Assembly (NCBI GenBank): GCA_021203205.1
Contig: JAJQBQ010000044.1
Coordinates: 149,630-173,629 of the forward strand
Direction of reading: 5' to 3'
Source of the DNA: Lachnospiraceae bacterium
Lineage (GTDB): Bacteria; Bacillota; Clostridia; Lachnospirales; Lachnospiraceae
DNA length: 24,000 bases
Shown piece by piece: positions 10,924 to 18,481 of the stretch. Below the pieces are notes generated by a model. It saw only the letters and a list, made by a program, of their open reading frames with translations, ran no database searches and was not told the origin of the DNA. The first letter of the stretch is position 1. Each line of letters opens with the position of its first letter. The translations under genes were made by a program, and so were the position numbers.

Positions 10924-11301
10924 TTGCGGTTTTAATGACGAAAGAGCGGAAAATACGAAGAAAGGTGAGGGATAACCTTTGTGGTCAGCAGAGAGCATGA
11001 GCAGGCACGGACACATAAGGCAACCATGGATCGTTACACTCTTTGACTGTGACGTAAAACAGGACTTATTTATTCACAGCAATAAAAAAGCGTATTTATG
11101 TTAATTAAAAAAGCTTGCGCCAAACCATCGAATGTGTTAGGATTACCGCAGGAAGCAGGGGAAGGCACCCATAAGAAAAAACGAAATACTTCCGGGAAAT
11201 ATGCGAGCGACAATAGGAAATGAAACACGAATTTTGTTCATTTGTTTTTGCCGCTTGTGTCAGACAATCTTATATGGCATCAATGCAAGGGGGAGACACC
11301 C

Positions 11302-11991
11302 ATGGATAAAAATGTGATTGTATTTGATGAGCATGAGAACGAAATCGGGACGACCTGGCTCAAACGGGCGAGGGGGCTTGTAAAGAAAGGCAGGGCGTGC
11401 TTCGTTTCGGAAAATGCGATTCGTCTTACGTCCGTGCCGGAATATAATATGGAGGACGATAAGATGTCAAAAAATAGAATCGAACCAATGGAAAATATAG
11501 ATGCCGCCAACGAGGCTGCGGTGGAGATGAAAACCGCGGCACAGGCATCGCCAGTGAACAGCACAGAGGAAGCCGCAGGTGTTGCAGCGCCTGAAAATCG
11601 CTATACATTAGCGTATGCTTTAGAGCAGATTGCGGCAATTCAGAAGCAGAACGAAGAACTGGATGGTTTGCTCCGCGAATTCCTGGATGAGTATATTCGC
11701 GGTCGTGAGGGCGAGCAAAAGCCTGAGGGAGATAGAGCTGCTCTGGCTGCGGAGGCATTTCGGGATACGGTGAAGTGCCGTGAGACGACGAACCAGCAGC
11801 TGCTCAGGTTCTATGAAAAGATGTACGATGACCTTAGAAGTGTTTCCGCACAGGATATCCTGAATGCGAAGAAAAACATGATAGAGAAGAACCTCGATAC
11901 CATTGGCTATCTTGGCGTTAATGAATTTGACGTGAACAGAGTCATGGATATGTACAACGCGGCGCAGGATACGATCCGCAGGATGGGATAA
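11302..11991 (+). CDS. Hypothetical protein with a PLMP/RRXRR-like N-terminal motif and a helical C-terminus
   Basis: The ATG at 11302 has GGGGGAG 6 nt upstream. The N-terminus reads NVIVFDEHENEIGTTWLKRARGLVKKGRACFV. The remainder is an acidic linker followed by predicted helices. Confidence 0.65.
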   Translation: MDKNVIVFDEHENEIGTTWLKRARGLVKKGRACFVSENAIRLTSVPEYNMEDDKMSKNRIEPMENIDAANEAAVEMKTAAQASPVNSTEEAAGVAAPENRYTLAYALEQIAAIQKQNEELDGLLREFLDEYIRGREGEQKPEGDRAALAAEAFRDTVKCRETTNQQLLRFYEKMYDDLRSVSAQDILNAKKNMIEKNLDTIGYLGVNEFDVNRVMDMYNAAQDTIRRMG

Positions 11992-12027
11992 TTTGACAGC
12001 AGCATAATTGATTTTAAATTTATGGGA

Positions 12028-12052
12028 CCTGCCGCTTGCGGCAGGTTCTTTT
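12028..12052 (+). terminator. Rho-independent terminator
   Basis: The stem pairs CCTGCCG (12028-12034) with CGGCAGG (12039-12045) around the loop CTTG. It is followed by TTCTTTT. Confidence 0.75.
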
Positions 12053-12075
12053 AAACAAACGCATATTTATACAAC

Positions 12076-12110
12076 AAAAACTGGGGCAGATAATATCAGT
12101 TATCTGCCCC
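12076..12110 (-). terminator. Rho-independent terminator for minus-strand transcription
   Basis: A perfect 11-bp stem pairs GGGGCAGATAA (12083-12093) with TTATCTGCCCC (12100-12110) around a 6-nt loop. On the minus strand it is followed by AGTTTTTGTTGT. Confidence 0.7.
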
Positions 12111-12392
12111 ACAAAAATTCATGGAATAGGCAGGGTGGCAATCCTGCATCTCTTTTAAGACCACTTGGGCGTGACGGCTGCCTGTTCCGTCCTCAGATTC
12201 CATAAAAAAGTCTGTGCCTTACAAAGGTTTATTATACTTTTTTTGGCTGAATTGTCAACGGTTAATTTTTGTATTTTGCTTTTGCTTTTTGATTAGTTGT
12301 TTAATGCGTTAACATTGATTGACTCAGATACCAAAAGTTGATTTACGAATTATCCTGCGCTTCGCGCCATTTAATCTTATAAATATTATGAT

Positions 12393-12860
12393 TCAGTCAC
12401 TCAATTTATTAGTCCATTTCCAGGCACGGCCTTTCTCCAGATAATTTGTTAACTGTGCATCCATGAGAGGATACATGGTTCTGTACGATAATTTCCCAGT
12501 AACGGAAATTCGTACAACTACTGCAATGTGATCAGAAAAGTCTTTGATAAAAGAAATACTGCTATCTTTAGGGTGGATAGCCAGATAATCTGGATTCTGA
12601 ATGATATCAGGTATGCTTTCCAAAGCATTAAGGTATGCAGTATCAGACATAAAATCATTTTTATGACGCTCTGTATGAAGCAGACGGTCTTTCCAGAAAA
12701 CGATATCTGTTTCAGATGACAAAACAGATGCCAAAGAAGGAGATTTTTCTTTTAAAAAGTTTACAATATCAGAAGAAATACGTCCAATTCTAACATATTG
12801 TATGTTAGAATCAGCAAAGCTTTCTGTAGAAAACTTTTGATGAAAGCTATCTACTTGCAT
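12393..12860 (-). CDS. Putative BECR-fold (Barnase/EndoU/colicin E5-D/RelE-like, PBECR-type) nuclease domain protein
   Basis: The RBS AAGGAGGTGAT is strong. The motifs DIVFWKDRLLHTERHKNDF and IPDIIQNPDYLAI resemble my memory of PBECR-family toxin domains. The family call is tentative and the CDS call is solid. Confidence 0.45.
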   Translation of the reverse strand: MQVDSFHQKFSTESFADSNIQYVRIGRISSDIVNFLKEKSPSLASVLSSETDIVFWKDRLLHTERHKNDFMSDTAYLNALESIPDIIQNPDYLAIHPKDSSISFIKDFSDHIAVVVRISVTGKLSYRTMYPLMDAQLTNYLEKGRAWKWTNKLSD

Positions 12861-12901
12861 GTTTAATCACCTCCTTTGAGAATCGAACTAATGTTCGCGC
12901 A

Positions 12902-12930
12902 ATTGTATCATGGAAGAGTATCTATGTCAA
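12902..12930 (-). promoter_or_regulatory. Near-consensus sigma-A promoter for the BECR-like gene
   Basis: On the minus strand, TTGACA (12930-12925) is followed by a 17-bp spacer and TGaTACAAT (-10 at 12907-12902). Confidence 0.6.
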
Positions 12931-13043
12931 GGACAAGTTTTTAGAAAAGTCTTGTATTCCAAATTGAGTGTAGCCGTATACTTTCCCCTAATCCAACCAG
13001 TCAGGAGGTTTCCCGAAGTTTAAATACAAATACTATAATTTAC

Positions 13044-13130: not shown

Positions 13131-16100
13131 ATGAACGAAATTGAAAGTCTGAAAATACGGGTATCCCAGCTTGAGAAGGAAAATGAATATCTGCGAACTC
13201 TGTTGACAAATGCCGGAATCTCTTTCGAGTCAGAAGACAAATCAACGAAATGTGATAAATATGATCCGAACCAGGGAAGCCGTATCATTCCCAAAACGGA
13301 ATTCACTACGGATGATGCGAATGATTTTTTTGTGATGTTTCGCGGTCGGATGGATTTATACAGCAAGCGTACCGTCTCAAAAGCGAAAGGAACAGCCGAT
13401 TATTATCCCCAGTGTCATAAGATCTGGCAGGAGGGATGCCCGAAAAAAGAAGATAAGAAATTTCAGTGCAGCAAGTGCAAGTCGCCTGCATTTATCAGGT
13501 TGGGAAAGGAACAGATTTTCGCGCATCTAAAGGGTTTATCGAAAACTGCAGAGGATGTCATCGGAATCTATCCCCTTTTTCCGGATGATACGTGCCGATT
13601 GATTGTGTATGATTTTGATAACCACGAAGCGGGAGCTGATAAACATGATTTTGCAAATACGGATGATTCCTGGATGGATGAGGTGAATGCGCTTCGCGAA
13701 ATTTGCAGGGTGAACGGAATCGACGCGCTGGTGGAGCGTTCCAGATCGGGCAGAGGCGCACATGTATGGATTTTCTTTCAGGGGAAAATAGAGGCCAGCC
13801 TTGCCAGAAAGTTTGGGTTTATGCTTCTCGGAAAAGGAGCAGAGTCTGTTGATCTGAAAAATTTCAGGTATTATGATCGCATGTATCCGATGCAGGATCA
13901 TTTACCGGAGGGCGGTTTTGGAAACCTGATTGCGCTGCCGCTGCAGGGGCAGGCGCTGAAAAACGGAAACAGCGCGTTTGTTGATGAACACTGGAATGCG
14001 TATCCGGATCAGTGGGCGGTGTTGAGGTCAAAGAGAAGATTAAGCAGGGATTTTATCGAAGAAAAAATAAAGGAATGGAGTATGCAGACTTCCATTCCGT
14101 CCATTCCATTGGATGAGATATCTGAGAAAACAAATGAGAAGCCGTGGAACAAATCGAAGAGCTTTCAAATGGAAGATGTAAAAGGAGCGCTTCATATTTC
14201 ACTGGCGGATGCGGTTTATGTAAAAACATCGAACCTCACCCCCAGAATCCGTAATCAAATTCGGAGACTGGCAGCTTTTAGCAACCCGGAATTCTATAAA
14301 AATCAGGCGATGGGATTATCGAACTTTAAAAACTCCAGTTACATTTATCTGGGGGAAGATGCCGATGGGTATATCCGAATTCCCAGGGGATTGTTGGATA
14401 ATCTTAAAGAAAATTGTGAGAATGCAGGCATTCCTTACGAAATCGAAGATCATCGCTGTGCAGGGCATGATATAAAAGTAAAATTTACCGGAAATTTAAA
14501 AGAATCTCAGATCACAGCGGTTCAGGCGTTGGAAAAGTATGATACCGGAATTTTACATGCGGCCACGGCGTTTGGAAAGACAGTAGTCTCCTGTGATATG
14601 ATCGCGCGAAAACATGTAAATACGCTGATTCTATTGCAGAACTCGACACTGATGGAGCAGTGGGAAAAAGCGATAGAGAACTTTTTGGAGATTGATGAGG
14701 AACCACCGGAATATCAGACACCGAGTGGGAGAACCAGAGTTCGGAAAAGCGTGGTCGGTCGTCTGCAGGGAGCCCACGATTCTACAACGGGGATCATTGA
14801 CATTGCAATGGTTGGCTCTTTATGTAAGAAAGGGATATTCCATGAAAAGCTCAAACAATATGGAATGGTCATCCTGGATGAGTGCCATCACGCTGCTTCA
14901 GATACAATTGTGGATGTCTTACAGGAAGTACGTGCGAAATACGTGTATGGTGTAACTGCGACTCCGAACAGAGGTGACAGGCTGGAAAAGATAAATGAAA
15001 TGCTGTTGGGGAGAGTTCGCTACCGATTTACTTCGAAAGATCGCGCCAGGGAGCAGGGGATTGCACACCTGGTTGTTCCACGCTTTACCAGAGCGGTAGC
15101 CCCAAGATTTGGAAATGACAGAATGCACCCGAATGAAGCATATGAACTTTTAAGAAACAATGAGGATCGGGATGAGATGATCCTGTGTGATGTTCGAAAA
15201 TGTGTGGAAAGCGGACGGACGCCGGTCATCCTTTCAAGATATGTTGATCATTCGCGCAAATTATATGAGCGTCTGCAAGGGTGCGCAGATCGGATATTTT
15301 TACTGTCCGGCGAGAATTCTAAAAAGGAACATCGGAAAATCATAGAGCAGATGAACCGTGTGTCAGCAGACGAAAGCATGATATTGATCGGAACAGGCAA
15401 ACTGGTCGGCGAGGGATTTGATTTTCCACGATTGGACACGCTGATCATGGCAACGCCGGTATCTGGAAAAAATGTCGTGGAGCAATATGCCGGGCGTCTG
15501 AACAGAGATTATGAGGGGAAAGAGGATGTCATAATCTATGACTATGTGGACATTCATATCAGTGTGTTTGAAAAAATGTATAATAAGCGGCTGAAAGCCT
15601 ACCGACAGATTGGGTATGACATGTATACGGAAACACGAATAATGAAAGAAAAGGGTAAGAAGAAAAGCGAAGGAAAAGATGAGGGGAAAGACGAAGGTGG
15701 CAACGATAGAGAAGATGAGTCAGCACAGAGTCCCGGTGCTATCTATGATGCGGGAAATTATCTTGAAAGATACAGGCAGGATCTGTGCCGGGCTGGAAGT
15801 GAAATCATCTTGTCAAGCCCGGTAATCAGTAGCGGGAAAGTAGATGAACTCATTGAATGGCTCCAGGAAAAGCAGCAAAGCGGCGTGAAGGTTCACATCG
15901 TCACATGGAAACCGGACATGTATGGTTTCGGAGACAGCGCGTACTGGATGGAATTGCAGGAGCGAATGCGGAACGCGGGATTTGAGATGAACCTGGTTGA
16001 AGATTACTGCCTGCACTATTGTATTGTTGACAGGGAATTGGTCTGGTACGGGAGTATGAATTTCCTTGGAAAGGAAGACACAGAAGATAATCTTATGAGA

Positions 16101-16178
16101 GTGTGCAATAAAAGTATTGCGGCAGAATTGCTGGAGATGACTTTTGGAGATGGAAATTATTGGGGAGAACGGATGTGA
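13131..16178 (+). CDS. Multidomain protein: coiled coil + 4-Cys ribbon + AEP/PrimPol-like domain + SF2 DECH-box helicase + C-terminal degenerate PLD-like domain
   Basis: AEP-like motifs are LIVYDFDNHE (DxD, nt 13611-13619), ERSRSGRGAHVWIFF and GGFGNLIALPLQG. Helicase motifs are AATAFGKTV (I), ILDECHH (II, nt 14877-14888), GVTATPNR (III), GEGFDFPRLDTLIMATP (V) and QYAGRLNR (VI). The C-terminus has LHYCIVDRELVWYGSMN, an HKD-like motif with K replaced by C. Confidence 0.85.
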   Translation: MNEIESLKIRVSQLEKENEYLRTLLTNAGISFESEDKSTKCDKYDPNQGSRIIPKTEFTTDDANDFFVMFRGRMDLYSKRTVSKAKGTADYYPQCHKIWQEGCPKKEDKKFQCSKCKSPAFIRLGKEQIFAHLKGLSKTAEDVIGIYPLFPDDTCRLIVYDFDNHEAGADKHDFANTDDSWMDEVNALREICRVNGIDALVERSRSGRGAHVWIFFQGKIEASLARKFGFMLLGKGAESVDLKNFRYYDRMYPMQDHLPEGGFGNLIALPLQGQALKNGNSAFVDEHWNAYPDQWAVLRSKRRLSRDFIEEKIKEWSMQTSIPSIPLDEISEKTNEKPWNKSKSFQMEDVKGALHISLADAVYVKTSNLTPRIRNQIRRLAAFSNPEFYKNQAMGLSNFKNSSYIYLGEDADGYIRIPRGLLDNLKENCENAGIPYEIEDHRCAGHDIKVKFTGNLKESQITAVQALEKYDTGILHAATAFGKTVVSCDMIARKHVNTLILLQNSTLMEQWEKAIENFLEIDEEPPEYQTPSGRTRVRKSVVGRLQGAHDSTTGIIDIAMVGSLCKKGIFHEKLKQYGMVILDECHHAASDTIVDVLQEVRAKYVYGVTATPNRGDRLEKINEMLLGRVRYRFTSKDRAREQGIAHLVVPRFTRAVAPRFGNDRMHPNEAYELLRNNEDRDEMILCDVRKCVESGRTPVILSRYVDHSRKLYERLQGCADRIFLLSGENSKKEHRKIIEQMNRVSADESMILIGTGKLVGEGFDFPRLDTLIMATPVSGKNVVEQYAGRLNRDYEGKEDVIIYDYVDIHISVFEKMYNKRLKAYRQIGYDMYTETRIMKEKGKKKSEGKDEGKDEGGNDREDESAQSPGAIYDAGNYLERYRQDLCRAGSEIILSSPVISSGKVDELIEWLQEKQQSGVKVHIVTWKPDMYGFGDSAYWMELQERMRNAGFEMNLVEDYCLHYCIVDRELVWYGSMNFLGKEDTEDNLMRVCNKSIAAELLEMTFGDGNYWGERM

Positions 16179-16309: not shown

Positions 16310-16519
16310 ATGACCGATAAGCAGAGAGAAATGATTGAGTACACGACACAGGATATTATCGCGTTCATTATGGAGGACAAAAACCTGAATATGGATGAGG
16401 CAATGGAGTTGTTTTATACATCTGTGACATTTGAAAAGCTTACAGATATAGAAACAGGTCTATATTTACAGGGTTCATCGTATGTCTATGAATTGTTTAA
16501 CAGGGAGCATAGGCACTGA
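16310..16519 (+). CDS. Small helical protein, tentatively DUF3791-like
   Basis: The 69-aa ORF stops 27 nt before the next gene's start. Its pattern ...DEAMELFYTSVTFEKLTDIETGLYLQGSSYVYELF loosely recalls DUF3791. The family call is weak. Confidence 0.5.
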   Translation: MTDKQREMIEYTTQDIIAFIMEDKNLNMDEAMELFYTSVTFEKLTDIETGLYLQGSSYVYELFNREHRH

Positions 16520-16546
16520 AAATCAGATAAAACGGGAGGAACGAGT

Positions 16547-18328
16547 ATGGCGCAGCGAACCGTATGTCTGTGTGACGGAAAATATGTAGGAATCGAGACG
16601 ATTTTCACGGTTGTCGACGGCAGGCAGATCAATATTCCGGGAAAGGTAGAGGAACTTCGTGCCAGAAGCCGGAAGAACGAATTGTTTTGTCCCTGTGGCT
16701 GCGGGTCCAACCTGATCCTTGTGGCCGGGGACAAAAACCTCCGTGAGCAGCATTTTCGCCTGAAAGACGGCGCATCGAATGCGAATTGCAGCGCGGTCAC
16801 GGAGGGCAACATATCGCTGAATTCCAAAATTGTTCTGAAATGCTGGCTGGACGACAAGCTTCACGCCACAGACCTGGAGACGCGTGTACCGGTCCGGTCA
16901 CTGGAAAACGGATCCTCGAATTCAAAAAACGGCGGCAGGAAGTATGAATTTTCCTTCCTTTCAGCAGAAAAGAAAATTGCGCTGAGTTACACGCATGAGA
17001 GAGCGAATCTCTCTGATGAAAAGTTTGATGCGTTGGAAAGTAATCAGCAGGAAATTCAAATCCTGTATGTGGTGGATGAGGCAAACAGCGGAAATACCGG
17101 CCAGTACCCGGAGGGGCTGATGAAGATTCAGAGGCGGCAGGGTCACCTTCTGTTTCTGAATATCAAGGGCTCGAATTATGCGGAGGCAACCCTGCATGCG
17201 GCTTTCTATGAGAAGGATATCGATGGACACTGGCAGGAACTCACGTTTGCGGAGGATGCACTGCCGCAGTTTGATATTGACGAGAACGGCGTAGTTATTT
17301 ATGCGGGAAAAGCGCTGGAACTGTATCGGGAAGATGTCCGCGACAGTTTTCGGGCAACACAGGAAGAATTAAAAAAAAGACGCGAGGAGGAAAGAAGACG
17401 CAGGGAACTTGAAGAAGAGAGGAGGAAGCAAAGGGAGAGGGAACGGCTGATTTGGGAGGAGGAGCAAAGGCGAGCCAGACGGCAGCGGGAAGAGGAAGAA
17501 AGACGAGCCAAGATACAGCAGGAGGAAGAGGAGAGACGGGCCAGAGAGTTACAGGAAGAAGAGGAAAGACGGGCATGGATGCTTCTATCGGAGGAAGAAA
17601 GGCGGGCTCGGAGACAGAAGGAAGAGGAAGAAAGACAGGCCAGAATACTGCAGGAAGAGGAAGAAAGGCGAATTCAGGCGCAGCAGGAAGAGGAACTTAA
17701 GGCGGCCCGGAAACTCCGCGAAGAAGAAGAGAGGCGACAGCGGGAAGAAGAGAGAAAACAGAGGAAAGTCGAAAATGAGCGGCTCTGGGAAGAAGAGATG
17801 GATCGCCAGAGCCTGGAACGGGCGAAAAGACGCCAGGAAGCCGCAGAGTATAGGGAAAAACGGCGGGATGATATAGAAAAGGAAAGGCAGCGCCTGGAAG
17901 AAGAGTATCAGCGACATTTAGCCGAAAGCAGGCGTCGGCGGGCGGAGCAAGAAGCCGAGGCCAGAAAACGGGACGAGGATTTCCGGCACAATATGGAGGC
18001 GCAGTTTTCACAGCAGGAACGACCGGTTTATGACCGCGATGGAAACCGCTGGATCCGCTGTGAATTTTGCGGAAAAATTGACCGGGACAGCAATTTTGTT
18101 TCCTACGGCGGGAAAAATCATGTGAATCTTGGAACCTGTAAAGAGTGCGAGTCGAACAACCCGGCGGTGCGGGAAAAGGCGGCCGCCGCGAAAATGCAGG
18201 CGGCCAGACGGCGCGACCAGAATACCTGCCCGGAGTGCGGCGGAACGCTGACCTTGAGGAATGGGCGGTTTGGCAGCTTTTATGGGTGCAGCAACTTTCC
18301 GGCGTGCAGGTATACCAGGAGAGCATAG
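16547..18328 (+). CDS. CoiA-like N-terminal domain / roughly 200-aa ER/K charged helix / two C-terminal zinc ribbons including a topoisomerase-type C4 finger
   Basis: The RBS GGGAGGA lies upstream. [29 protein letters not shown] resembles the CoiA N-terminal Cys-rich motif ...FFCPxCG...HFAHK. Residues 271-478 are almost entirely E, R, K and Q. CEFCGK...CKEC forms one ribbon. [30 protein letters not shown] is a zf-C4_Topoisom-like finger. Confidence 0.8.
17357..17980 (+). repeat. In-frame purine-rich coding repeats, with 33-bp / 11-aa EEEERRAxxxQ-type units in the core
   Basis: Successive units read [56 protein letters not shown] and [25 protein letters not shown](A/G)C recurs at about 33-nt spacing between roughly 17490 and 17700. 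Confidence 0.8.
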
Positions 18329-18340
18329 GGGATAATTTGA

Positions 18341-18374
18341 CTGCTGTAAAATTTGCTGTTGATTTTTACAGCAG
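18341..18374 (+). terminator. AT-rich hairpin, a possible weak terminator after the 593-aa gene
   Basis: A perfect 11-bp stem pairs CTGCTGTAAAA (18341-18351) with TTTTACAGCAG (18364-18374) around a 12-nt loop. Only ATTT follows, so terminator strength is doubtful. Confidence 0.35.
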
Positions 18375-18481
18375 ATTTGACTAGACTAACATCGAACGTG
18401 TGGAGAATGAGGCTGCAGTTTTATGGATGCTGTCTATATATGCTGAGCCTCGAAAATTGATATGAGTTTTGGAGGAAAACA

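Follow-up and report, generated by a model that had tools for sequence, protein, structure and literature searches.

The stretch analyzed here is a window of 24,000 nucleotides (nt) of contig JAJQBQ010000044.1 (positions 149,630 to 173,629 of the forward strand); all coordinates below refer to this window, and residue numbers refer to the protein P0001. The gene encoding P0001 (593 amino acids, aa) occupies positions 16547 to 18328 on the plus strand, stop codon included, and a Shine-Dalgarno sequence (GGGAGG, positions 16534 to 16539, plus strand) can be read 7 nt 5' of its ATG. An AEP-helicase-PLD gene (positions 13131 to 16178) lies upstream on the same strand, 368 nt away. The original prediction had placed the P0001 gene directly downstream of this primase-helicase gene; it is indeed downstream, but an open reading frame (ORF) of 69 aa lies between the two. 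The P0001 gene is present in one copy in its own genome, and since the identical 593-aa protein was found on an independent public assembly (a Logan contig from one run), its long run of repeats is unlikely to be an artifact of assembly. Our analysis revealed that P0001 is composed of a Cys-rich head, a charged segment, a CxxC...CxxC ribbon, and a topoisomerase I (Top1)-type C4 ribbon, and thus the ORF, the motif, the charged segment, and both ribbons that had been described from the sequence alone were all recovered.

The head, which is always N-terminal in the family, was modeled by AlphaFold2 with high scores (pLDDT 93.4, pTM 0.90). It opens with two predicted beta-hairpins and a helix (aa 1 to 45; positions 16547 to 16681, plus strand; strands 6 to 9, 12 to 15, 20 to 23, and 26 to 29; helix 33 to 42), of which residues 23 to 45 were paired with the N terminus of CoiA by hhalign. 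A Cys/His zinc-finger-like module follows (aa 46 to 82; positions 16682 to 16792, plus strand), the candidate ligands of which (i.e., C48, C50, C52, H69, and C81) are retained in 88 to 90 of 90 diverse homologs. Both the model and hhalign then delimit a PD-(D/E)xK-fold core (aa 86 to 205; positions 16802 to 17161, plus strand) of the predicted topology alpha-beta-beta-beta-alpha-beta (helix 88 to 105; strands 110 to 115, 134 to 139, and 144 to 149; helix 157 to 165; strand 171 to 177), in which E86, E134, Y148, E158-K159, D177, and Q186-Y-P-E189 are conserved. The head ends with a beta-rich subdomain (aa 206 to 256; positions 17162 to 17314, plus strand), delineated by modeled strands (215 to 223, 229 to 238, 242 to 244, and 250 to 252; pLDDT of at least 94 in those blocks) and by conservation, with W229 retained in 89 of the 90 homologs. 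In a first AlphaFold model, based on 36 close homologs, aa 1 to 85 were poorly modeled (pLDDT 72.7) and the search of PDB folds was uninformative.

Three Pfam domains describe CoiA, namely, CoiA_N (PF25164), CoiA_nuc (PF06054), and CoiA_C (PF25166). The Cys-rich motif that had been likened to the opening of CoiA-family nucleases was found at aa 45 to 73 (CPCGCG ... HF), where CoiA_N scored 12.9 bits, below its cut-off of 26.3; in a whole-protein Pfam scan, CoiA_N scored higher on the C-terminal ribbon than on the head. CoiA_nuc matched neither aa 1 to 270 (at E values up to 10) nor the whole of P0001, and CoiA_C had no match on P0001 in the Pfam scan. Likewise, Pfam, NCBIfam, PHROGs, and PADLOC searches of the head returned the weak CoiA_N match only, and no Pfam nuclease. 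In profile-profile comparison, an untrimmed family profile aligned to the CoiA alignment with a probability of 74% (E 2.8e-5), and a head-trimmed profile with 86.7% (E 4.4e-6, 156 columns), compared with scores of 13 to 25 and probabilities of at most 2.7% for reversed and shuffled controls, the CoiA profile itself being shallow (15 sequences, from a homolog search that yielded mostly the Bacillus cereus group). The alignment pairs C48, C81, and H69 of P0001 with C37, C64, and H55 of CoiA, respectively, and places C52 one column off C40. The shared signatures (CoiA/P0001) comprise FCPxC/FCPCGC, HF/HF, an invariant Cys, the helix-1 Glu, K...W, D/E134, and A..Y..NLS. Unlike CoiA, P0001 has no second His in its finger: CoiA H58 is aligned to L72, a position that is Leu or Ile in the family. 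Searching the head model against BFVD by Foldseek gave a phage "Competence protein" as the best match (E 5.5e-7, probability 1.0), followed by zinc-ribbon and restriction-endonuclease proteins, and nothing significant was found among solved structures in PDB (best E 0.08). These profile and model comparisons support the view that the head is a remote CoiA homolog outside the CoiA family proper, with the same N-terminal order of hairpin and helix, Cys/His finger-like module, and PD-(D/E)xK core; the CoiA-like head of the original prediction is thereby borne out, as remote homology. The C-terminal half of P0001, a charged helix plus zinc ribbons, differs from that of CoiA.

The role of CoiA as resolvase of the D-loops of natural transformation was demonstrated only recently, and the protein is described as confined to Bacillota; it is a structure-specific endonuclease resolving D-loops, carries a C2H2-type N-terminal finger, requires its PD-(D/E)xK motif for DNA cleavage, and depends on D95 and E105 (the beta2 Asp and beta3 Glu of the S. 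pneumoniae protein) for transformation, and its site is itself atypical (PMC13663708). In our hhalign alignment, E134 of P0001 lies opposite the catalytic D107 of CoiA, and S147 lies opposite the catalytic E120. The catalytic acids had been thought to be substituted in P0001, which holds for the beta3 Glu but not for the beta2 acid, kept as Glu in 84 of 90 homologs. The beta3 position is occupied by S (26), C (25), N (14), V (10), or D (5) across the 90 homologs, and the residue after it (the Q/K position) differs among family members, so that, unlike in CoiA, both the Glu and the Gln of the E-Y-Q motif of beta3 vary. As judged from these alignments, the canonical beta3 catalytic Glu is lost family-wide, which argues against CoiA-like catalysis, and the head would therefore either bind junctions without cutting them or be a nuclease whose site has been rearranged. 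If it cuts, such a site could be built from E86, E134, E158-K159, D177, and E189.

A stronger version of the latter is that the head has full nuclease activity at a relocated site, and that P0001 is a single-gene anti-phage or anti-plasmid effector, which would cut intermediates of replication or recombination (e.g., flaps and D-loops) located by its ribbons via exposed single-stranded DNA. In its favor, E86, K159, and E189 (88 of 90 homologs each), an acid at position 158 (80 of 90), and E134 persist among homologs down to ~30% identity, exceeding what a purely structural pseudo-enzyme would need. Moreover, the beta3 acid has moved to a neighboring helix in the restriction enzymes Cfr10I and NgoMIV, and some homologs have defense-island neighbors (see below). 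The atypical site of CoiA itself (PMC13663708) also fits. Nevertheless, the position of the Glu essential in CoiA is S, C, N, or V and the next position is variable, no known defense model matches P0001, and one family member has acquired an McrC nuclease domain, which is more understandable if the head does not cut. On balance, we consider this reading unlikely.

Between head and tail lies a charged E/R/K/Q helix (aa 257 to 488, 232 aa; positions 17315 to 18010, plus strand), classified by composition as of the single alpha-helix (SAH) type, the first residues of which (257 to 269) are already helical in the head model (pLDDT ~98). This segment has no Gly or Pro and is 33% acidic and 31% basic (64% charged), with 14% hydrophobic residues. 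Pairs of E/D with K/R numbered 37 at i+4 (versus 24.0 in composition-matched shuffles, z 4.0) and 40 at i+3 (versus 24.0, z 4.9). Hydrophobic periodicity at 3.5 or 3.67 residues did not exceed shuffles in P0001 (z -1.07 and -0.23, respectively) or in 116 homologs (mean z 0.17 and 0.13, with ~5% above z 2, roughly as in shuffles). By these measures, aa 257 to 488 would be an SAH-type helix without a heptad or hendecad seam, and the SAH signature ascribed to the central region holds up in its composition, its salt-bridge pairs, and its lack of a coiled-coil seam. ER/K SAH spacers occur in eukaryotic myosin VI, myosin X, and caldesmon. The P0001 helix resembles them in being dominated by E, R, and K, in its enrichment for opposite charges at i/i+4, in its low hydrophobic content, and in its lack of breakers and of a heptad seam; unlike them, it is bacterial, Arg-rich rather than Lys-rich, placed between two putative nucleic-acid-binding modules, and derives its length from 11-residue tandem repeats.

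The main competing view of this region is that it dimerizes through a weak coiled coil, whether parallel or antiparallel, possibly a right-handed 11-residue coiled coil like that of ATP synthase subunit b, in which case P0001 would form a two-headed, two-tailed dimer whose helix fixes no distance. PD-(D/E)xK nucleases are commonly dimeric, the 11-residue repeat of the expanded part places Ala and Leu/Ile three residues apart and so creates a thin apolar stripe, and weak matches were obtained to ATP synthase subunit b stalks (family profile, E 0.02) and to JetC (E 0.0013). These matches are compositional, however, and the hydrophobic content of just 14%, the absence of 3.5- or 3.67-residue periodicity above shuffles in P0001 or its 116 homologs, and the SAH-like enrichment of i+3 and i+4 salt-bridge pairs all speak for a monomeric helix instead. 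We consider dimerization through this region unlikely, and read it as a putative monomeric SAH.

A helix of ~200 residues had been predicted, which applies to P0001 (232 residues) but not to the family, in which the median length is 97 residues (interquartile range 91 to 104), so that the excess is a lineage-specific expansion. Comparison of the family sequences indicates that helix length is constrained, and that the 232-residue length is private to the P0001 allele and arose via old, degenerate 33-nt (11-aa) tandem repeats (positions 17455 to 17670, plus strand). Tandem Repeats Finder (TRF) reported periods of 33 and 66 nt with 68 to 78% matches, and a repeat search found 6 copies at 33-nt spacing with a mean column identity of 72%; at the protein level, the lag-11 residue autocorrelation was 0.29 in P0001 versus 0.07 to 0.16 in homologs. 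An active contingency locus was rejected, as the 33-nt copies are merely ~72% alike. The single A8 run (positions 17371 to 17378) is no more than expected by chance.

The tail carries a family-specific C4 ribbon and a Top1-type C4 ribbon, the arrangement usually seen in the family, of which the head is the constant core. The middle C4 zinc ribbon (RWxxCxxCGK...SYGG...NLGxCxxC; aa 501 to 537; positions 18047 to 18157, plus strand) has its cysteines, C505/C508...C531/C534, exactly where a CxxC...CxxC ribbon had been noted (nt 18059 to 18148); it matched no Pfam family, and of the 267 sequences collected for the family, many of which are fragments, 136 contain the motif WxxCxxCG. The last ribbon (aa 559 to 592; positions 18221 to 18322, plus strand; C561/C564...C581/C587) is a bona fide Top1-type ribbon, as had been proposed, scoring 55.6 bits against Zn_ribbon_Top1 (PF01396; cut-off 32; E 4.4e-15), and occurs in 44 of the 90 diverse homologs. 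The family profile also aligned weakly (per-domain i-Evalue ~0.5) to two ribbon repeats of Escherichia coli topoisomerase I (4rul); apart from such weak ribbon alignments, the profile search of solved-structure sequences gave only compositional stalk and coiled-coil matches. The C-terminal ribbons of topoisomerase I bind single-stranded DNA (PMC4678816). Like type IA topoisomerases (PDB 4RUL), P0001 has all four Cys of such a ribbon within its last 34 residues, but unlike them it has one Top1 ribbon and no tandem array. No TOPRIM or topoisomerase core domain of Pfam or NCBIfam was found in P0001, and its sole NCBIfam match fell on the ribbon (30 bits, cut-off 868); because this core is missing, the NCBI name "DNA topoisomerase I" given to some members is a misnomer. 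NERD-domain proteins with a C-terminal zf-C4_Topoisom are PD-(D/E)xK nucleases joined to Top1-type ribbons, and P0001 likewise combines a restriction-endonuclease-fold module with a topoisomerase-type single-stranded-DNA ribbon; the genes for such combinations usually lie in accessory regions. In the P0001 family, the two modules belong to one polypeptide, in which a charged helix of ~100 to 230 residues and an extra family-specific ribbon set them apart, and the nuclease motif is degenerate. Tail swaps were seen in single clusters each, with a UvrD helicase in P0212 and an McrC nuclease half in P0123.

The position of the P0001 gene raises the possibility that it is a functional partner of the AEP-helicase-PLD gene, with which it may have moved as one cassette. 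The shared strand, a 368-nt gap containing one small ORF and no terminator-like site, and two imperfectly matching 25-nt direct repeats (identical at 21 of 25 positions; positions 11985 to 12009 and 18329 to 18353) that exactly flank the segment running from the PBECR3 gene through the P0001 gene are consistent with such a unit. Across 80 homologous loci, however, tblastn with all 12 window neighbors revealed no partner gene and, in particular, no relative of the helicase gene (0/80), the only helicase-query matches being three weak ones of 20 to 24%. The 69-aa ORF, which is PDC-M13C-like, is not conserved either (phmmer against 187 small upstream ORFs; tblastn, 80 loci). As for the repeats, chance alone would produce an estimated ~0.7 exact 13-mer repeats within 9.5 kb, and none of 100 relatives revealed an empty site. 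A partnership or joint cassette is thus very improbable, and the link to the primase-helicase gene implied by the original prediction, which had itself named missing linkage among homologs as grounds for abandoning it, is refuted. Nor does any other gene take the helicase's place: an all-against-all comparison of 1193 ORFs yielded no conserved neighbor, the widest shared cluster spanning 7 of the 80 loci. The P0001 gene is solitary, without a partner gene, and the co-occurrence expected of a TOTE/AEP-helicase conflict system was not observed in these loci.

The family is uncharacterized, large, and horizontally scattered, falling into at least 1086 clusters when grouped at 90% identity (at least 233 at 50% identity) with a typical member of ~460 aa, and is centered on Lachnospiraceae and gut Clostridia. 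The gene was present in 1 of 100 relatives, and a survey of 185,579 species genomes turned up 96 stretches with the family. Neither 50,697 phage records nor 72,556 plasmid records contained a match that would point to a phage or plasmid origin, and only 3 family loci were found among 2.9 million IMG/VR contigs. This distribution bears on whether P0001 could be the Lachnospiraceae equivalent of CoiA, i.e., a housekeeping recombination or competence factor. The remote homology of the head, together with the lack of a CoiA_nuc match in the genome, would fit that role, but CoiA is a competence gene conserved within Bacillota, whereas the P0001 family occurs sporadically, in accessory parts of clostridial genomes; the scarcity of the gene, its variable genomic contexts, the lost catalytic Glu, and the unmatched CoiA_nuc and CoiA_C make a CoiA equivalent scarcely credible.

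The neighborhoods of the homologs provide a modest association with defense. BREX lies directly upstream of one homolog and McrBC upstream of another, and non-redundant near neighbors match 197 PADLOC models (e.g., HmaC, LmuB, PbeA, NsnB, and several PDC candidates), compared with 119 models for genes at least 6 kb away. This distal control set also contains defense genes, however, and many homolog neighborhoods consist of ordinary metabolic genes. P0001 itself matched no defense model of PADLOC-DB v2, bar the compositional JetC coiled-coil match. The patchy distribution and these neighbors together suggest conflict with foreign DNA rather than housekeeping.

Most likely, P0001 is a DNA-structure-binding conflict protein, which possibly also cuts. 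By analogy with the same ribbons in topoisomerase I, the tail would hold single-stranded DNA, and the head, by analogy with CoiA, would engage a single-strand/double-strand junction or branched DNA; the charged helix, judging by its composition, would be a stiff monomeric spacer fixing the reach between the two, at ~15 nm for the typical 97 residues and ~35 nm in the P0001 allele. The gene would act alone, without the AEP-helicase-PLD gene. Taken as a whole, a CoiA-derived head, an SAH spacer, and single-stranded-DNA ribbons in a solitary conflict protein make up the explanation that we favor, with somewhat more confidence than doubt. A bolder proposal is that the family represents a new single-polypeptide immunity or genome-surveillance protein, with an SAH ruler, a single-stranded-DNA anchor, and a junction-recognizing head with a relocated site. 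We give this proposal a slim chance; if it is true, replication or recombination intermediates of invaders would be marked or cut at a set distance from the point where single strands are exposed, and that distance would be altered in alleles like P0001, whose helix is 2.4 times as long as usual.

The family is also of interest as a large sister family of CoiA in gut Clostridia that appears to keep the fold and most of the signatures and to have lost the canonical catalytic Glu, i.e., a CoiA module re-used outside competence, in accessory and defense-rich regions. As far as its sequences indicate, it further offers a natural, length-constrained bacterial ER/K-type helix between putative nucleic-acid-binding ends, and the natural length variant at this locus (232 versus ~97 residues) makes the "ruler" idea directly testable.

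P0001, the 593-aa protein under study, is encoded on the plus strand by the ORF at 16547-18328, preceded at a distance of 7 nt by a strong GGGAGG ribosome-binding site. The gene is present as a single copy in its own 3.56-Mb genome, and an identical protein is encoded in a second, independent public assembly. The ORF and all features listed for it in the original prediction, i.e., the Cys motif (CPCGCG...QHFRLK, aa 48-73), the charged segment and both zinc ribbons, were found at the predicted positions. The middle CxxC...CxxC ribbon (C505/C508/C531/C534) lies at nt 18059-18148, and the last C4 ribbon (C561/C564/C581/C587) matches Pfam Zn_ribbon_Top1 with 55.6 bits (cut-off, 32), bearing out the predicted topoisomerase-type finger at the C-terminus. 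P0001 is not a topoisomerase.

To place the head (aa 1-256), for which a resemblance to CoiA had been proposed, we compared it with CoiA at several levels. Sequence-to-profile searches gave a CoiA_N match of 12.9 bits at aa 35-65 and no match to CoiA_nuc on the head; in a scan of whole P0001, the better CoiA_N stretch was the C-terminal ribbon. Profile-profile comparison of a 90-sequence family alignment with a shallow CoiA profile of 15 sequences yielded a probability of 74% (E 2.8e-5), and trimming the family profile to the head gave 86.7% (E 4.4e-6, 156 columns). As controls, a reversed CoiA profile and ten with shuffled columns scored 13-25, with probabilities of ≤2.7%. The comparison paired CoiA FCPxC with family FCPCGC, HF with H69-F70, the invariant Cys (C64) with C81, the helix-1 Glu with E86, K...W with K94...W100, RPD with Y-E134, A-I-E-Y-Q with A145-L-S147-Y148-T149, and NLS with N154-L-S (CoiA residues are numbered by the query of the alignment of Bacillus cereus-group sequences). 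With 36 close homologues as input, AlphaFold2 modelled the N-terminus of the head poorly (pLDDT 72.7); a second model, built from 90 diverse sequences, was confident (pLDDT 93.4, pTM 0.90) and displayed the alpha-beta-beta-beta-alpha-beta core of PD-(D/E)xK enzymes at 88-177. Foldseek detected no similar fold among solved structures (best E 0.08). In a library of viral predicted structures, the best match was a 370-aa phage 'Competence protein' (E 5.5e-7, probability 1.0, 274 columns), a label that appears to be the one usually given to CoiA-family proteins, followed by zinc-ribbon proteins and restriction endonucleases. Profiles and model together identify the head as a remote relative of CoiA, in line with the proposal. 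No model in PADLOC, PHROG or NCBIfam covers this region.

The endonuclease CoiA is structure-specific, cutting at 5' junctions of single- and double-stranded DNA and resolving RecA D-loops; DNA cleavage requires its PD-(D/E)xK motif, and D95 (beta2) and E105 (beta3) are both required for transformation (PMC13663708). The acidic residues had been predicted to be substituted in P0001. This held for beta3, where the catalytic Glu of CoiA is replaced in the family by S/C/N/V (Asp in only 5/90), but not for beta2, where a Glu (E134) is conserved in 84/90 sequences. As the position following the beta3 site, a Gln in CoiA, is also variable, the canonical CoiA-type site is gone. P0001 was rejected as a CoiA family member, since it lacks CoiA_nuc, CoiA_C and the catalytic Glu. 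Residues E86, K94, E134, Y148, an acid at 158, K159, D177, Q186-Y-P-E189, Q195 and Q198 are kept down to ~30% identity, a pattern pointing to a functional pocket, be it a catalytic site that has been rearranged or a surface for recognising DNA. A head that does not cut and one that cuts with a relocated site are about equally likely.

The charged segment of P0001 (aa 257-488; 232 aa) contains no Gly or Pro and is 33% acidic, 31% basic and 14% hydrophobic. Pairs of E/D with K/R exceeded shuffles at i+4 (z 4.0) and i+3 (z 4.9). A dimeric stalk, rather than a ruler, would be the rival reading of such a segment; however, hydrophobic periodicity was absent in P0001 (z -1.07 at 3.5, -0.23 at 3.67) and in the 116 homologues analysed (mean z 0.17 and 0.13, respectively), which speaks against a canonical coiled coil and is in keeping with the single alpha helix originally predicted from sequence. 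The great length of the segment holds for P0001, the maximum observed, but not as a family trait, the median in homologues being 97 residues (IQR 91-104). At 0.15 nm per residue, the calculated span would be ~15 nm for a typical member and ~35 nm for P0001. Repeats of 33 nt (11 aa) at 17455-17670, degenerate and about six in number, account for the extra length and are unique to the P0001 allele (lag-11 autocorrelation 0.29 versus 0.07-0.16 in homologues). Because the copies are only ~72% alike, the duplication is old, and a slippage-prone tract was rejected.

We found no published paper on this family. Its members, mainly from Lachnospiraceae and other gut/rumen Clostridia, fall into at least 1086 clusters at 90% identity by a word-seeded search that used residues 1-270, and into 233 clusters at 50% identity by exhaustive phmmer (1.84 billion representatives). 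The family combines a CoiA-derived head, in which the catalytic motif is degenerate, with a charged helix that lacks a hydrophobic seam and is constrained in length, and with DNA-type zinc ribbons. Every member carries the head at its N-terminus, and the usual protein length is ~460 aa. The Top1 ribbon, present in 44/90 diverse members, is the only Pfam domain recorded apart from CoiA_N in one member. Since the ribbons can be replaced by a complete UvrD-type helicase (aa 405-1033 of P0212, a 1089-aa metagenomic member), by a McrC nuclease half (aa 288-440 of P0123, 486 aa, metagenomic) or by tails without a Pfam match (several members), the head and charged helix are the constant part and the tail is exchangeable; P0212 and P0123 each represent one 50%-identity cluster and may be chimeric assemblies. 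Few members have names, and these read 'topoisomerase DNA-binding C4 zinc finger domain-containing protein' or 'DNA topoisomerase I'. The latter name is wrong, and the misnaming is likely to spread. NCBI entries so named (e.g., the family members P0019 and P0078) hold that enzyme's C-terminal zinc ribbon only.

Upstream of the P0001 gene lie a PBECR3 nuclease gene (minus strand), a gene for a 1015-aa AEP-TOTE/ResIII/PLD-like protein (the helicase gene, 13131-16178) and, 27 nt away, a 69-aa ORF (16310-16519, plus strand); a Phd/small ORF/zeta-like cassette follows downstream. This adjacency had raised the possibility that P0001 is a partner of the helicase, but the predicted co-occurrence failed, with relatives of the helicase gene beside 0/80 homologues and only three weak 20-24% matches. 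Likewise, each of the other window neighbours was found at 0/80 loci, and clustering of 1193 ORFs revealed no neighbour cluster at more than 7/80 loci. The 69-aa ORF has no Pfam match, matches the PADLOC candidates PDC-M13C (E 4e-28) and PDC-M13B (E 5e-11), and has no relatives among 187 small upstream ORFs (phmmer).

A P0001-type gene occurs in 1/100 related genomes, which counts against a housekeeping equivalent of CoiA, a reading that would draw on the kinship of the head. A search of 185,579 species genomes detected the family in 96 stretches, and just 3 of 2.9 million IMG/VR contigs carry it; 50,697 phage and 72,556 plasmid records gave no match. The gene is a solitary, mobile accessory gene. 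Members L008, L018 and L067 are on contigs that binning assigned to MAGs of Bacteroidota (Muribaculaceae, Bacteroides, Prevotella), reflecting either cross-phylum transfer or binning error.

Family neighbourhoods are heterogeneous, yet often include defence genes. A complete BREX system (BrxC, PglX-type methylase, PglZ, BrxL) ends 180 nt upstream of the homologue P0016 (L088), and an Mrr_N-McrB/McrC pair lies immediately upstream of P0019 (L082/L083). The near neighbours (150 non-redundant genes) matched 197 PADLOC models, several with E <1e-90, versus 119 for 150 distal genes ≥6 kb away, an imperfect control drawn from the same islands. A fully active, single-gene defence nuclease would suit such surroundings and has to be set against the altered beta3 position. 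We favour a role in conflict with foreign DNA in which the ribbons would hold the protein on single-stranded DNA, as the ribbons of topoisomerase I do (PMC4678816), the charged helix would act as a spacer, and the head may recognise, and possibly cleave, junctions or branched DNA by analogy with CoiA. CoiA joined to the topoisomerase ribbon would be nearest in working to P0001.

Imperfect 25-nt direct repeats (GGGATAATTTGAC...; 21/25 identical, 6344 nt apart) at 11985-12009, overlapping the stop codon of ORF 11242-11991, and at 18329-18353, directly after the P0001 stop, flank the block of PBECR3 gene, helicase gene, 69-aa ORF and P0001 gene; they could be marks of an inserted cassette or chance. 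G+C content is 36% at 12001-13000 (PBECR3 gene and divergent promoter region) versus 42-56% elsewhere in the window, in keeping with the block being foreign. An inverted repeat (CTGCTGTAAAA ... TTTTACAGCAG) at 18341-18376, missed by a simple terminator scan, lies between the P0001 stop codon and the Phd-like gene and may serve to terminate transcription or as a regulatory hairpin.
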